Shown here piece after piece: positions 4,697 through 61,738 of a DNA stretch of 64,000 nt. Source of the stretch: an uncultured Planctomycetia bacterium (GTDB lineage Bacteria > Omnitrophota > Gorgyraeia > 2-01-FULL-45-10 > JAHFGN01); the NCBI GenBank assembly GCA_964354545.1, contig CAYHAE010000005.1, positions 12,414 to 76,413 of the forward strand. Reading direction: 5' to 3'. Position numbers and translations under genes: made by a program. The notes beneath the pieces are model-generated. The model was given only the letters and a program-made list of their open reading frames with translations, was not told the DNA's origin and did not search any database. Position 1 is the first letter of the stretch. The number at the start of each line of letters is the position of its first letter.

Positions 4697-5737
4697 ATGA
4701 AATATAGTCCGATCATGCTTCGGATCATTACAGGGGCGCACTTCTTATTCTTACCCTTGGTGCCGGGTCCCGCCCATGCGGAAGAGAAGGTGATCAGGGT
4801 CGGATATTTCCCGAACATAACCCATTCGCAGGCGGTCATCGGCATCGCGAACGGCGCATTTCAGAAAGAATTGGGTAACGACGTTAAGATAGACGTCAAG
4901 ATATTCAACGCAGGCCCCTCGGCGATAGAAGCGATGTTCGCGGGAGAGCTCGACCTTACGTATATAGGGCCAAATCCCGCCATCAACGGATACGTTAAGT
5001 CCAAAGGGAGCGCCCTGAAGATCGTCGCAGGAGCCACGAGCGGGGGAGCAGGCCTCGTGGTCCGTGAGGATTCCGGAATTCAGAAGATAGGGGATTTCCA
5101 CAACAGGAAGATCGCATCGCCCCAGCTGGGCAATACCCAGGATGTCGCTCTCAGAGGATGGCTTAAAACGAATGGATTCACCCTGCGAGAAAGGGGCGGG
5201 GATGTTCAGGTCATCCCTATCGCCAATCCGGATCAGCTTACTCTTTTTCTCAAAAAGGAGATAGACGGAGCCTGGACGGTGGAGCCGTGGGTGAGCCGCT
5301 TGATCAAGGAAGGTCACGGGAGACTGTACCTGAATGAGCGGTCGATCTGGCCGAACGGAGAATTCGTGACCGCTCATATAATCGTGAGCCAAAAATTCAT
5401 GCGCGAGCACCGGGATCTCGTCAAAAAGTGGGTCGCATGCCACGTCGATCTCACGGGATGGATCAATCAGAATTTGCCCGAGGCGAAAGGTATCTTGAAT
5501 GAAGAGCTGAAGAGGATCACGGGGAAGGCTTTGCCCGCGGATGTCCTCGACGAGGCGTTCGCCCGCCTGAAGGTGACGTATGACCCTATCCAGAATTCGC
5601 TCTTCACATCCGCCCGGTGGGCCTTCGAGCAGGGATTCCTCGGTAAAGAATTTCCGGATCTTTCCGGGATCTACGATCTCACTGTGTTGAACGAAGTTTT
5701 GCGCGAGAAGGGCTTGGAGAATATCGAGAATAAATAG
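4697..5737 (+). CDS. ABC transporter periplasmic substrate-binding protein, NMT1/SsuA/TauA-like (sulfonate/nitrate/bicarbonate class)
   Basis: There is an N-terminal signal peptide (MKYSPIMLRIITGAHFLFLPLVPGPAHA). The NMT1-like fold signature is VGYFPNITHSQAVIGIANG. The gene is followed by the cognate ATPase and permease. Confidence 0.7.
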   Translation: MKYSPIMLRIITGAHFLFLPLVPGPAHAEEKVIRVGYFPNITHSQAVIGIANGAFQKELGNDVKIDVKIFNAGPSAIEAMFAGELDLTYIGPNPAINGYVKSKGSALKIVAGATSGGAGLVVREDSGIQKIGDFHNRKIASPQLGNTQDVALRGWLKTNGFTLRERGGDVQVIPIANPDQLTLFLKKEIDGAWTVEPWVSRLIKEGHGRLYLNERSIWPNGEFVTAHIIVSQKFMREHRDLVKKWVACHVDLTGWINQNLPEAKGILNEELKRITGKALPADVLDEAFARLKVTYDPIQNSLFTSARWAFEQGFLGKEFPDLSGIYDLTVLNEVLREKGLENIENK

Positions 5738-5739
5738 GC

Positions 5740-6531
5740 ATGGCAAAGCTGAAACTACACGATGTCTCAAAACGTTTTAGGACCCGGCATGGATTCCTGA
5801 CGGTATTGAAGGATATCGATCTGGAGGTTGAGGACGGAGAATTTCTTTGCATTGTCGGGCCATCGGGGTGCGGGAAGACAACGCTTCTGAATATTATTGC
5901 CGGGTTAGAAAATCCGTCAAAAGGCCAGGCGCTGTACAAGGGCACACCGATCTCCGGGCCCAGCCCGAACAGGTTGATCATCTTCCAGGAATTGGGGTTG
6001 TTTCCATGGTTGACGGCGCAGAAGAATGTGGAGTTTGGGCTAAAGATGAAGAGGATCCCGCAGCGCAAAAGACAAGAAATAGCCCTCGAGTATCTCGATA
6101 TGATGAATCTCATCAAGTTTAAGGATTCGTATATCCATGAGTTGTCCGGAGGCATGAAGCAACGGGTTGCCCTCGCGAGGGCATGGGCCATGGATCCGGA
6201 GATCCTGCTCATGGACGAGCCCTTTGCTTCGCTGGATGCTCAGACGAGAGATATGCTTCATGATGAACTCCAGAGAATTTGGGAGAGGACGAAAAAGACC
6301 GTTATTTTCGTCACGCACAATGTAAGAGAGGCAGTATGTCTTGGGGACAGGGTGATCGTCCTTTCTGCGCTCCCCGCGGAGATCAAGGCGTGCTTCCAGA
6401 TCGATTTGAAGCGTCCACGGCACATCGAAGACCTCGGCCTGATGGAGATCGTGAGGTCGGTTTTGACGGAGTTGCGAAGCGAGATCGAGAAAACCTTCAG
6501 AGAGGAATTAAGTGCGGCAGAAAATACTTAA
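5740..6531 (+). CDS. ABC transporter ATP-binding protein (SsuB/TauB/NrtD-like)
   Basis: Walker A is GPSGCGKTT. The ABC signature is LSGGMKQRVALARA. Walker B is ILLMDEPFASLD. Confidence 0.85.
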   Translation: MAKLKLHDVSKRFRTRHGFLTVLKDIDLEVEDGEFLCIVGPSGCGKTTLLNIIAGLENPSKGQALYKGTPISGPSPNRLIIFQELGLFPWLTAQKNVEFGLKMKRIPQRKRQEIALEYLDMMNLIKFKDSYIHELSGGMKQRVALARAWAMDPEILLMDEPFASLDAQTRDMLHDELQRIWERTKKTVIFVTHNVREAVCLGDRVIVLSALPAEIKACFQIDLKRPRHIEDLGLMEIVRSVLTELRSEIEKTFREELSAAENT

Positions 6532-7267: not shown

Positions 7268-7291
7268 GGCGCCTGACTGAAGTGCGGGGCT

Positions 7292-7470
7292 AATCCCCTC
7301 CGCAAAATCCCCGGCTTTTGGTTCGACGAGCTCACCATCCCTCGAACCATCCCGAGCCGTTCGACAGGCTCACGATGCCTCGAATGGTGCCGAGCAGAGT
7401 CGAGGCACGAAGTCGAGGGGCAAGCCGGGGATGGGAAGTTGCGGAATAGGATTTTGCTTCGGGGAGGGAG
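7292..7470. repeat. MITE/REP-like intergenic element, copy A (long variant) with terminal inverted repeats
   Basis: The 5' end is AATCCCCTCCGCAAAATCCCCGG. The 3' end is GGATTTTGCTTCGGGGAGGGAG, an imperfect reverse complement of the 5' end. The interior holds nested inverted repeats (GGTTCGA...TCGAACC, CCTCGA...TCGAGG). The same termini occur at 27258-27346 and 61629-61706. Confidence 0.5.
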
Positions 7471-7533
7471 TCTCGGCCCTGCCAGCGGAGCTGGCGAGGC
7501 CGAGGGGCTCCACAAAAGAGAAGGAGACGATCG

Positions 7534-16479: not shown

Positions 16480-17550
16480 ATGGAAAAGATGAAAAAATAT
16501 AGAGTCGGGATCATCGGATGCGGCAGGATGGGCTGGCTATTCAACGAAGATAATCTAGCCGCGCAGCCTATAAGTCATATAGCCGCGTACATGGCCAATG
16601 AGCGATTCGAGGTCGTATCGGTCTGCGATATCGATAGCGCGCGGCTGCGCAGGGTATCGATGAAATACGCCATAAGAAGGGCCTACGCCGATTATACGGA
16701 GATGCTCGCGCGCGAATCGCTTGATATCGTGAGCATTTGTACGCCCACGGCGACCCATTCAACGATCTGTGCGGATGCCGCACGCTCCGGGCTGCGGCTG
16801 ATATTCTGTGAAAAACCGATATCCTCCTCGTTAGAAGAAGCGGATAAGATGATCTCCGTGTGCAAAAGAAATAATGTGCGGCTTGTTATCAACCACACGA
16901 GAAGATGGGATACGAGTTTTTGCGCGGCCAAGAAGCTTCTTGAAAAGGGTGTGATCGGAGCGCCGTCTTTTGCCGCTTCATTTTCACAAGTGGGCCTGCT
17001 TAACGGGGGCACGCATCTTTTCGACTTGCTGAGGAGTTACTTCGGCGATGTCGAGTCGGTTTCCGGCACGATAATCCCTGACGAAAGCACCGATCCGGGC
17101 GGCAGGGGACTTCTTGATTTTGCAGAAGGCCCCGCCTGCTTTGTAGATGCATGTTGGCGCGAGTATGTACTTTTCGGAGTTGATATCTATGGCGACAAGG
17201 GGGTTATACGGGTGGGAGGTCGCGTGAGAAGCCGTGATGTGGTCGGATTGTTTATAGGTAAAAAGAGTAAAAACGAAAGCGGTATAAAAGAATTGGAAGC
17301 AGTGAGCTGTAAAATGCCAAAATGGAAAACGCCGATCCTGTGCGCCGTCGACAATATAGCGGGTAGCCTGCGCCGCAATGAAAAGATCGCGTGTACCGGC
17401 GAGGACGGCAGGGCTGCGCTGGAGATTGCGATGGCTTTTCATGAGTCCTCGCGGCGCAATGGGATCAAAGTTGCGCTACCGTTGAAGCGCAAAAACGTGA
17501 GTATTATACCACGCTACACTTCTTTTACTAGGGATGGCATGCTGAAATGA
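16480..17550 (+). CDS. Gfo/Idh/MocA-family NAD(P)-dependent oxidoreductase
   Basis: The Rossmann motif is YRVGIIGCGRMG. The family motif CEKPISSSLEEADKMISVCKRNNVRLVINHTRRW is present. The likely start is the ATG at 16480 or 16489. Confidence 0.75.
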   Translation: MEKMKKYRVGIIGCGRMGWLFNEDNLAAQPISHIAAYMANERFEVVSVCDIDSARLRRVSMKYAIRRAYADYTEMLARESLDIVSICTPTATHSTICADAARSGLRLIFCEKPISSSLEEADKMISVCKRNNVRLVINHTRRWDTSFCAAKKLLEKGVIGAPSFAASFSQVGLLNGGTHLFDLLRSYFGDVESVSGTIIPDESTDPGGRGLLDFAEGPACFVDACWREYVLFGVDIYGDKGVIRVGGRVRSRDVVGLFIGKKSKNESGIKELEAVSCKMPKWKTPILCAVDNIAGSLRRNEKIACTGEDGRAALEIAMAFHESSRRNGIKVALPLKRKNVSIIPRYTSFTRDGMLK

Positions 17551-27220: not shown

Positions 27221-27257
27221 TACGTAAAATCAAGAAGGATATCGCCGGCCACGAGCT

Positions 27258-27346
27258 TAGTCCCCTCCGCAGAAACCATCGGGCTTTAGCCCGAGGATTG
27301 GATTCCGTTATAACGGAATCCATGCGTTTCTGCTTCGGGGAGGGAG
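27258..27346. repeat. MITE/REP-like intergenic element, copy B
   Basis: TAGTCCCCTCCGCAGAAA is followed by the hairpin ATCGGGCTTTAGCCCGAGGAT and an internal palindrome GGATTCCGTTATAACGGAATCC. The element ends in the inverted terminus TTTCTGCTTCGGGGAGGGAG. The termini are shared with copies at 7292 and 61629. Confidence 0.5.
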
Positions 27347-27524
27347 CCTTAATGAAAAGCTCGCATGCTGATGGGGATATTTCCCCAAAGAAAAAAGGTG
27401 CCCCGGCCTTTAGGCCGGGGGGCTCCACAGATAGTGATTATTATTCAAATGCTCCTTTTCTATCGGTATTCGAGTGAGGAGCATCGCGGGGTTAAGACCG
27501 TACGGTTATGAACGAGGTATACCA

Positions 27525-60469: not shown

Positions 60470-60600
60470 CGACGGAAAATCCGAATATCGAAATCCGAAT
60501 ATTGAAACCTCAGAAATCGTTGCTACAAAAGCGCGGTTTCGAATTTAGGATTTCGAATTTAGGATTTGTTTAGGATTTCGGATTTCGAGTTTAGAATTTA
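60470..60600. repeat. Palindromic tandem-repeat array (AATCCGAATATYGAAA x2 ... TTCGAATTTAGGATT x2, GGATTTCGGATTTCGAG)
   Basis: The forward half-array lies at 60477-60507 and the reverse-complement-type half-array at 60536-60598. The array ends 10 bp before the RBS of the 60618 gene. Confidence 0.5.
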
Positions 60601-61536: not shown

Positions 61537-61625
61537 TTAAATCCGAAATCCGAATATCGAATTTGTATCGAGTTTCGGATTTAGAATTTCGGATTTGTTT
61601 CGTATTTCGGATTTCGTGTTTCGAA
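61537..61625. repeat. Second copy of the AATCCGAA/TTCGGATT palindromic tandem-repeat array
   Basis: TAAATCCGAAATCCGAATATCGAA is followed by TCGAGTTTCGGATTTAGAATTTCGGATTTGTTTCGTATTTCGGATTTCGTGTTTCGAATTT. The array has the same unit family and architecture as 60470-60600. It abuts MITE-like copy C. Confidence 0.5.
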
Positions 61626-61628
61626 TTT

Positions 61629-61706
61629 AATCCCCTCCGCAGAAATCCCCGGGCTTTAAACCGGGGATGAATGCGAGCGATAATATTTCTTCTTCGGGGA
61701 GGGAGC
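61629..61706. repeat. MITE/REP-like intergenic element, copy C
   Basis: AATCCCCTCCGCAGAAA is followed by the perfect hairpin ATCCCCGGGCTTTAAACCGGGGAT. The element ends in the inverted terminus TTTCTTCTTCGGGGAGGGAG. The termini are shared with copies A and B. Confidence 0.5.
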
Positions 61707-61738
61707 TCTCGGGCCTAAAGGTCGGAGGGGCTCCACAT

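Follow-up and report, generated by a model that had tools for sequence, protein, structure and literature searches.

The 64,000-nt stretch of contig CAYHAE010000005.1 analysed here (GenBank assembly GCA_964354545.1, positions 12,414 to 76,413; henceforth called the window) carries three copies, A, B, and C, of a short hairpin-rich repeat that is very probably of mobile origin. The repeat is an undescribed family in the uncultivated phylum Omnitrophota; the kind of element is already known. Its copies have exact ends, lie directly behind the pentanucleotide TTTAA without any duplication of target DNA, share a conserved fold, and are facultative at their sites. Palindrome-associated transposable elements (PATEs) are gene-less derivatives of IS200/IS605 insertion sequences (IS), and a non-autonomous element specifically of IS200/IS605 or PATE type is the assignment that was favoured with moderate confidence. 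From sequence alone, we infer the class of the mobilising enzyme, the single-strand mechanism, and transcription of the element.

The ends were defined on one copy (locus L043, 816-927) that lies antisense and in frame inside an open reading frame (ORF; 158-1459) for a 433-aa PlsC-family acyltransferase. The insert adds 35 aa (VEPLGLKSEAPSPKQKYPSQSFIPEQNPQGFLRRG), and exactly those residues are missing from 16/16 aligned homologues; the closest homologues are 396-409 aa long, with identities of 80-89% for the nearest eight. In the DNA, the sequence of the occupied site is ...GGCAAAAATT|GTGGAGCCCC...(105 nt)...GAAGGGGG|TTAAAGCAC, and the empty sites of two homologues read ...GGCAAAAATT|TTAAAGCGC and ...AAAATT|GTAAAGCGC. 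In the orientation of the gene, AAAATT|105 nt|TTAAAG is thus set against AAAATT|TTAAAG or AAAATT|GTAAAG, and in the orientation of the element, CTTTAA|CCCCC...CTCCAC|AATTTT against CTTTAA|AATTTT. Because a shift by a single base breaks the match, the boundaries are unambiguous: the element spans the first base after TTTAA to CTCCAC, and TTTAA is pre-existing target DNA, of which nothing was duplicated. Across 38 copies, no flanking direct repeats were found at 168 boundary offsets with k = 3-6, the best case (3/38 at k = 3) being at chance level. TTTAA directly precedes the element in 26/38 copies, each of its positions being 79-97% conserved, and bases 5' of the element were absent from both patterns by which copies were collected (see below).

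These ends bear on the leading idea of the first-pass annotation, i.e., a classical MITE (miniature inverted-repeat transposable element), which would have arisen by deletion from a DDE-transposase IS with terminal inverted repeats (TIRs) and target-site duplications (TSDs). A small, non-coding, multi-copy, and strongly folded element would fit this idea, as would a 6-nt subterminal complementarity (CCCCTC/GAGGGG) between the end regions. However, no duplication was seen at the exact empty site or among the 38 copies, and the true ends (TTTAA|YCCCC... and ...CTCCAC|) are not inverted repeats. The supposed 20-bp TIRs are instead the two strands (5' and 3') of a stem inside the element, in which UCCCC:GGGGA and GCARAA:UUYUGC surround a 3x3 loop and past which another 43-82 nt of element follow, and each window copy runs 30-85 nt beyond its originally reported 3' end, through a GC hairpin to a third block, GGGGCTCCAC. 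The start given for copy B also had to be corrected from TAATCCCC to TAGTCCCC. The element is furthermore not AT-rich (GC 0.5-0.6); TIRs, TSDs, and AT-richness are listed as defining features of MITEs (PMC3049150). A classical MITE is therefore very improbable.

Facultative presence was observed at the spacer upstream of cysC, where copy A is located. In relatives, this spacer holds no copy on six contigs with four distinct CysC homologues (L044-L048, L050), and on a further contig with a fifth homologue (L049) cysC directly follows the preceding gene; the covariance model described below found no copy anywhere in these seven loci. Among the copy-less spacers, one still has the C-terminus of the homologous permease next to it, and in another an unrelated gene has been inserted. 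A copy between atpA and atpG is present in 4/4 contigs from four samples, i.e., without presence/absence polymorphism, and did not yield a second exact empty site because the nearest other AtpG is just 59% identical.

In the window, the family is recognised by a left, a middle, and a right block (blocks 1, 2, and 3). The left block TCCCCTCCGCARAAA starts at 7294, 27261, and 61631 with 1, 0, and 0 mismatches, respectively. The string CTTCGGGGAGGGAG of the middle block occurs exactly at 7457, 27333, and 61692 (0.87 sites expected by chance in the window at ≤2 mismatches), and no fourth site is found in the window even at ≤2 mismatches. Past a GC-rich hairpin, all three copies have the exact 11-mer GGGGCTCCACA in common (7504, 27419, and 61727). 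At ≤1 mismatch, this 11-mer has 5 matches in the window compared with 0.85 expected, and 5 matches were reached in 0/100 shuffles. A covariance model was built from 26 canonical-length copies, taken from other genomes plus copy C. It returned copy C with E = 7e-18, copy A with 2e-17, and copy B with 1.5e-10, and an unfiltered search of the window gave no credible fourth copy; the initially described strings are present at all three sites, and the window holds exactly three copies. A marginal match at 16758 (E = 0.05) carries none of the blocks and was rejected as chance, and a regular expression for the minimal forms described below had no match within the window.

Copies from elsewhere were collected by two database scans, both of which demanded block 2 exactly. 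In the scan of a genome collection (blocks 1 and 2), 20 loci were retrieved, comprising 18 true copies and two chance matches in other phyla. The true copies come from five species-representative metagenome-assembled genomes (MAGs), four of them labelled Candidatus Omnitrophota and one Planctomycetales; 14/18 lie on different contigs of MAG SO_2017_LW3_37 (JBAZGE01), with unrelated flanks. In total, one MAG carries no fewer than 15 copies that are nearly identical. The metagenome scan (blocks 2 and 3) yielded 22 loci, most of which also have block 1, which was not demanded by the pattern. Additional copies that were not selected by either pattern were found in the fetched loci by the covariance model, and one of these carries GGGGGGGAG in block 2. 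The suggestion that the repeats are small, dispersed, non-coding, rich in hairpins, and derived from a mobile element was thus borne out by about 40 more copies in Omnitrophota genomes and metagenomes and by the precise empty site. Within one genome, copies are near-identical including their loops, as expected from recent copying rather than from selection at each site. Two subtypes, I (GCAAAA) and II (GCAGAAA), coexist in the same genomes, e.g., many copies of I and one of II in MAG SO_2017_LW3_37. The nearest named relatives of the proteins encoded in the window are Omnitrophota, and the phylum was assigned from such named homologues. No copy was found in the viral contigs and plasmids scanned. 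Searches against Rfam 15 gave no family match for the whole window at the gathering score, chance matches to miRNA hairpins only for copy A at E up to 10, and, at E up to 1, nothing on the element in four loci that hold canonical or minimal copies. The literature searched contained no account of the family.

Five copies (L002, L010 at 3773, L018, L019, and L034, from MAG SO_2017_LW3_37 and a metagenome contig) are embedded in a larger repeat, with GCCGGTGG upstream and CCACCGTCGGCGTCAGCCGTTAGAGAACCGGGGTTCTCTAACGGGGTTTAC downstream, the latter overlapping the coding sequence of prepilin-like N-termini (SLTGFTLIE). Because this larger repeat is shared, part of the copy number in MAG SO_2017_LW3_37 may stem from duplication of the larger unit. 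A tandem repeat of ~140 nt in a Dehalococcoidia MAG (JAGWBJ01; L015, ~5000-5400) contains CCCCTCCGCA and CTTCGGGGAGGGAG. It was rejected as a family member, having neither block 3 nor a covariance-model match, and appears to be unrelated and built around the hairpin CCCTCCCC-CTTC-GGGGAGGG.

A canonical copy is ~105 nt long and consists, in this order, of UCCCC, UCC, GCARAA, the hairpin P2, a ~20-nt junction with UGCGGA, UUYUGC, UUC, GGGGA, a single G, the hairpin P3, and AC. The left module comprises P1 (UCCCC:GGGGA), P1b (GCARAA:UUYUGC), and the side hairpin P2, and its interior can be absent or expanded. P3 (~12 bp) is composed of GGAGCC, a P2-like apex, a GG bulge, and GGCUCC. The apices of P2 and P3 have GGYCUUYAGRCC in common, and such similarity would suit a single protein binding both ends. 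In an alignment of 26 sequences, 94% of cells pair in the helices P1, P1b, P2, and P3, compared with 38-66% when the partners are slid, and the four helices were independently predicted by RNAalifold. Compensatory changes were found in P1b (A-U to G-C in 7 sequences, the change that defines the two subtypes), in P2, and in the P3 apex. There are 46 G-U pairs against 19 A-C mismatches, so that the fold belongs to the strand as given. An alternative helix, UCCGCA:UGCGGA, excludes P1b, has compensatory changes at three pairs, and is favoured in folds of single sequences. The window copies form stable folds; the minimum free energy of copy C is -51.5 kcal/mol (z ~ -5).

Many copies depart from this canonical form. 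Some forms are minimal (38-56 nt), with P1 closed straight on UUC, and were found at L022, L024, L025a, L038, and L032:754-793, and forms without P2 at L025b, L029, and L035. Expanded forms are copies A and B, L027, and L042; copy A had already been described as a longer variant with an expanded core, which was traced to a unique insertion in the P2 loop. Copies truncated at the 5' or 3' end occur at L005, L026, L028, and L010:6769, the last being an orphan left half, i.e., a truncated copy and not an IS. Nested or duplicated copies were seen at L025a, L032 (with a duplicated block 2), and L027. At L036 (2166-2274), P2 and the junction, which lie between the arms TCCGCA and TGCGGA, are inverted relative to all other copies, and the covariance model also matches the opposite strand there. 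Truncation, nesting, and internal inversion are damage typical of mobile DNA. The truncated copy of L026 (42-161) is broken inside the P2 loop, and a 480-aa ORF adjoins it at 232-1674. By its N-terminus, this ORF would be a candidate IS1182/IS5-type transposase.

Small modules were also noted within the loops. In L027 (8472-8611), the same small hairpin module, CTAGCCGCCGTAGGCGGCATG, is found in both the P2 and the P3 loop, and a similar CCTGCC..GGCGAGG module lies in the P3 loop of copy A (7479-7497) and of L024. Other mini-hairpins seem to land preferentially in the loops of the element, which contain TTTAG/TTTAA-like strings. A second module of ~46 nt (CCCTTCCTTAA.AGG...CTATCC.TGT.GGG.TTAG) occurs in the P2 loop of two unrelated copies (L032, reverse strand, ~5700-5790; L042, 962-1114) and may be another mini-element family.

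Relative to the neighbouring genes, 37 of 43 copies (86%) are in sense and six in antisense orientation, the latter including a copy in a nusA-infB operon (L021) and the intragenic copy of L043. Most copies fill short spacers between co-directional genes, leaving gaps of 10-60 nt on each side. All window copies are intergenic and co-stranded with their flanking genes (all +), as originally stated. A role as terminators, which had also been proposed, did not hold, as no window copy has a +-strand hairpin followed by a T-run. Neither a +-strand terminator-like site in or beside the three window copies nor a good sigma-70 match at them was detected. Judged from these signals, the window copies are probably co-transcribed with the operon, in particular copies A and B, around which no +-strand terminator and no strong promoter lie.

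Several other regulatory readings were tried and discarded. As to a terminator or attenuator, a U-run follows the UCCGCA:UGCGGA hairpin only in subtype I and behind a 5-nt spacer, and as to a leader peptide, a 12-codon ORF is not conserved in subtype II. No feature supports a sigma-54 promoter, a G-quadruplex, attC, or a hepatitis delta virus-like (HDV-like) or other ribozyme, and a tRNA-like minihelix was rejected because ARAGORN finds nothing.

In the window, the copies stand just 5' of biosynthetic genes (cysC, an oxidoreductase gene, and a family-2 glycosyltransferase (GT2) gene), and P1b and UCCGCA:UGCGGA are mutually exclusive with compensatory changes in both, which could look switch-like. 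A riboswitch or regulon-specific leader for downstream sulfation and polysaccharide genes is nonetheless largely refuted. Nine genes located 3' of co-oriented copies encode an extracytoplasmic function-type (ECF-type) sigma factor, TruA, ribosomal proteins S2 and S6, methionine aminopeptidase (Map), a GuaA amidotransferase domain, ATP synthase gamma (AtpG), GpsA, and an aminotransferase; as these are functionally unrelated, a pathway-specific riboswitch or leader is excluded. The whole "switch" region is moreover missing from the minimal copies, antisense and intragenic copies exist, cysC has no such leader in the relatives examined, and no Rfam family matched.

A less specific role for the host would be that of a cis-acting RNA module under selection, serving as a processing or stability mark or as a leader that modulates translation, with an AU-rich 5' tail and two GC hairpins as the acting parts and with mobility being secondary or ancient. 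The sense bias, the location of most copies in short spacers between co-directional genes, the retention of core sequence and fold across several genomes with compensatory changes and G-U excess, the probable co-transcription of copies A and B, and the fixation of the atpA-atpG copy in four samples would all agree with such a module, and effects on mRNA have been reported for enterobacterial repetitive intergenic consensus (ERIC) repeats, Correia repeats, and bacterial interspersed mosaic elements (BIMEs) (PMC10969869, PMC3049150). On the other hand, the six copies antisense to their operon, including the one at nusA-infB and the one inside a coding sequence, the orthologous spacers without the element in relatives, and the recent copying indicated by near-identity within one genome speak against it. 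An RNA module as the reason for the presence of the element is thus considered unlikely; it is compatible with the element being mobile.

The absence of TIRs and of target duplication, insertion immediately 3' of a fixed pentanucleotide, a right end with a constant motif, and imperfect hairpins close to both ends on one strand together make up the signature of IS200/IS605 elements. Four of the six features that define this group (PATEs included) were tested and found here, among them the lack of target duplication, insertion 3' of a target-adjacent motif (TAM) of the host, and subterminal one-strand palindromes in place of TIRs. The group has been described by a TAM, top-strand subterminal palindromes, no target-site duplication, and gene-less derivatives (bioRxiv 10.1101/2023.03.14.532601; PMC3201880). 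By this type of "peel-and-paste", the element would move, or would have moved in the past, as single-stranded DNA: the top-strand hairpins near the ends would be recognised by an HUH/Y1 transposase provided in trans, this enzyme would cut behind the TTTAA next to the target and behind the CTCCAC encoded by the element, and the freed strand would be pasted 3' of another TTTAA, for which neither duplication nor terminal inverted repeats would be needed. The window copies would have come to lie as passengers in the spacers of a sulfated-polysaccharide operon, and if they influence how the mRNA folds, how stable it is, or how it is translated, this would be a side effect that does not account for their presence.

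The orientation of the copies can be accommodated as well. The lagging-strand template is the sense strand of genes that are co-directional with replication. Since IS200/IS605 elements insert into the lagging-strand template (PMC5027513), a sense bias of 37:6 would be expected without any RNA function; the bias is compatible with an orientation tied to replication and is not a demonstration of it. Besides being recognised by a transposase, the right module (P3 and CUCCAC), transcribed by read-through, might be a 3' guide-RNA scaffold that uses the adjacent flank as guide for a TnpB-like nuclease, encoded at another place and acting in trans, which would re-cut the empty TTTAA-flanked donor joint and thereby retain the element, or it might have been domesticated in Omnitrophota as a general punctuation or processing signal of operons. 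The predominance of sense copies would ensure the read-through transcription required for the guide scaffold; we regard these roles as a long shot.

Several observations weigh against an IS200/IS605-type element. In ~360 kb of loci, neither a Y1/HUH transposase nor an autonomous partner sharing the ends was seen, as judged by a weak tblastn search with an IS200 TnpA query. The left hairpin P1 starts right at the cleavage point. In IS608, a linker at the left end carries the DNA guide, unlike the placement of P1 here. In minimal copies without P2, the hairpin that would serve for left-end recognition is ambiguous. Nucleotide-exact empty sites are available for one insertion only, and the apparent invariance of block 2 is partly ascertainment, as this block was required exactly in both scans. 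The window copies have diverged from each other outside the core blocks, which an RNA or host function under selection could also explain, and the target motifs at copies A (GCTAA) and B (CTTAG) are degenerate. GC skew as a proxy for the direction of replication merely tracks the coding strand on these MAG contigs. Given their divergence outside the core, the partly degenerate target motifs, and the unique internal insertions in two of them (A and B), copies A-C look like old insertions.

An enzyme of the Y1/HUH class would also be involved if the family were a repetitive extragenic palindromic (REP) or REPIN-like (REP doublet forming hairpin) repeat kept by a single-copy domesticated REP-associated tyrosine transposase (RAYT), and not a PATE of a conventional IS. 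The missing IS partner in the ~360 kb (by the weak tblastn search), the coexistence of subtypes within and between genomes, which suggests long vertical persistence as in REPINs (bioRxiv 10.1101/2021.07.10.451892), and the intergenic location between unidirectional genes, as reported for REPs (PMC3733652), would agree with this. Against it stand the consensus of 26 copies, which by eye contains neither GTAG nor CGTC on either strand, the tags that define the REP superfamilies (PMC3733652); the asymmetric unit of ~105 nt, which is neither a palindrome of 20-40 bp nor an inverted REP doublet; and the lack of a RAYT gene in the same ~360 kb by the same weak test. The REP/BIME-like character proposed in the first-pass annotation is contradicted by the missing tag, and a RAYT-kept repeat is considered quite unlikely. 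REP/BIME and REPIN sequences (PMC3733652, PMC3116915) resemble the family as GC-rich extragenic hairpins with tens of copies between co-directional genes that are probably transcribed and thought to be handled by a Y1/HUH enzyme; the family differs from them by the missing tag, its far longer and asymmetric unit of two modules, its TTTAA target, and the lack of a RAYT in the ~360 kb of loci.

The closest likeness to known systems is to PATEs, e.g., the ISGst-related PATEs of Geobacillus stearothermophilus (bioRxiv 10.1101/2023.03.14.532601). Like these, the element is small and without a protein gene, has hairpins on one strand near both ends and no terminal inverted repeats, is inserted right after a TAM without duplication, ends on the right in a fixed motif (transposon-encoded motif, TEM), and is present many times per genome, with mobilisation that would take place in trans. 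It differs in being shorter (105 nt; minimal forms 38-56 nt), in the left hairpin abutting the cleavage point, in its host phylum Omnitrophota, in that no cognate TnpA or autonomous IS was identified, and in having no sequence similarity to described IS ends or to omega/right-end element RNA (reRNA), in line with the lack of an Rfam match. TTTAA is also targeted by IS605 of Helicobacter pylori. In Sulfolobus islandicus, the reported insertion site of IS605 is again TTTAA and its right end finishes with UUCAC (PMC11043419), so that TTTAA at the left end and a pyrimidine-rich right end in CAC (CUCCAC here) are alike. These IS605 elements, however, are 1.5-2 kb long and encode TnpA and/or TnpB plus a guide-RNA scaffold, whereas the family described here has no gene and no detectable homology to them, and the shared target may be convergent.

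The BOX elements of streptococci and the ERIC sequences of enterobacteria (PMC3049150, PMC10969869) likewise have conserved end modules around an optional or expandable interior, are intergenic within operons, occur in both orientations, and form a stable RNA fold; the minimal copies found here have their counterpart in A1C1, the smallest form of BOX. They have been described with TIRs and assigned to MITEs, live in other host phyla, and have no sequence relationship to the family. Rickettsia palindromic elements (RPEs; PMC10969869) are similar in that in-frame insertion into a gene is tolerated as an extra peptide, as at L043 (35 aa). Such insertions are frequent for RPEs and were found for 1 of ~43 copies here, and RPEs end in CGTC (PMC3733652).

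The current understanding is not overturned by this family, as PATEs, REPs, and related repeats are well known; its main value lies in annotation and in studies of mobile DNA. Several naive ORFs run through copies of the element, and gene callers predict spurious small ORFs across it or extend gene starts too far; assemblies are probably broken at the repeat as well. The covariance model can be used to mask or annotate this recurrent repeat in Omnitrophota MAGs. For mobile-DNA studies, the results suggest that single-strand transposition of the HUH type takes place in an uncultivated phylum whose cells are often ultra-small, and L043 provides a clean natural case of a 35-aa in-frame insertion tolerated by an enzyme. 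The elements of the window are passengers of the sulfated-polysaccharide operon and not its regulators.

The extents and parts of the three window copies, one of subtype I and two of subtype II, are listed in Table 1.

Table 1. Positions of the three element copies and their parts in the window
Feature	Position	Strand	Remarks
Copy A	7294..7513	+	220 nt, expanded variant, subtype I; covariance-model match 7289-7515
Copy A, pentanucleotide touching left end	7289..7293	+	GCTAA, degenerate TTTAA
Copy A, left block	7294-7308	+	TCCCCTCCGCAAAAT
Copy A, unique insertion	7316-7430	+	~115 nt in P2 loop
Copy A, middle block	7451-7470	+	TTTTGCTTCGGGGAGGGAG
Copy A, P3 hairpin	~7467 to 7511	+	with extra internal hairpin
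Copy A, right end	7504-7513	+	GGGGCTCCAC
Copy B	27261..27428	+	168 nt, subtype II (GCAGAAA/UUUCUGC); covariance-model match 27256-27430
Copy B, pentanucleotide touching left end	27256..27260	+	CTTAG, degenerate TTTAA
Copy B, left block	27261-27275	+	
Copy B, P2 hairpin	~27278-27296	+	
Copy B, extra hairpin	27299-27322	+	in place of junction
Copy B, middle block	27327-27346	+	
Copy B, right end	27419-27428	+	GGGGCTCCAC; P3 split by ~55 nt unique sequence
Copy C	61631..61736	+	106 nt, canonical length, subtype II; covariance-model match 61626-61738
Copy C, pentanucleotide touching left end	61626..61630	+	intact TTTAA
Copy C, left block	61631-61645	+	
Copy C, P2	61646-61668	+	
Copy C, middle block	61686-61705	+	
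Copy C, P3	61702-61734	+	
Copy C, right end	61727-61736	+	GGGGCTCCAC

Copy A lies between genes for an ATP-binding cassette (ABC) transporter permease and adenosine 5'-phosphosulfate (APS) kinase (cysC), copy B between a sulfotransferase and a GFO/IDH/MocA oxidoreductase gene, and copy C between rmlD and the GT2 gene. The start codon of the latter (ATG 61739) is located 2 nt past the end of copy C, and its sole Shine-Dalgarno-like sequence (GGAGGGG, 61724-61730), paired in the 3' strand of P3, is consequently element DNA. By this arrangement, the ribosome-binding region of the GT2 gene would now be supplied by copy C.

For the insertion of copy A, no second copy was found in the collected loci, and its similarity to a hairpin in the spacer of L050 was not significant. 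In L050, the permease-cysC spacer, i.e., the position of copy A, is filled by a gene for a 23S_rRNA_IVP four-helix bundle (1474-1821) with AACCAA-rich repeats around it. A NusG paralogue (PF02357) is encoded early in the polysaccharide cluster of a relative (L049, 2273-2782). On the minus strand of the window (27401-27430), CACCTTTTTT comes after the apical hairpin of P3 in copy B (CCCCGGCCTAAAGGCCGGGG), an arrangement that is terminator-like for antisense transcription.

The entire window (1-64000) is one long +-strand locus, with genes for an NMT1/SsuA-type ABC transporter, APS kinase, ATP sulfurylase, a CysQ-like phosphatase, sulfotransferases, B12/radical-SAM enzymes, sugar-nucleotide enzymes, and glycosyltransferases, and probably encodes a pathway for a sulfated polysaccharide. 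Two arrays of 7-nt units that are built alike flank rmlD (60477-60600 and 61539-61628), the second of which abuts copy C. In each, AAATCCG is repeated two to three times in one direction and followed by eight to nine units of TTTCGGA/TTTAGGA/TTTCGAA in the opposite direction. At ≤1 mismatch, TTTCGGATTT occurs 24 times in the window compared with 7 expected, and an array of regulator sites or curved promoter DNA are possibilities for the two arrays.

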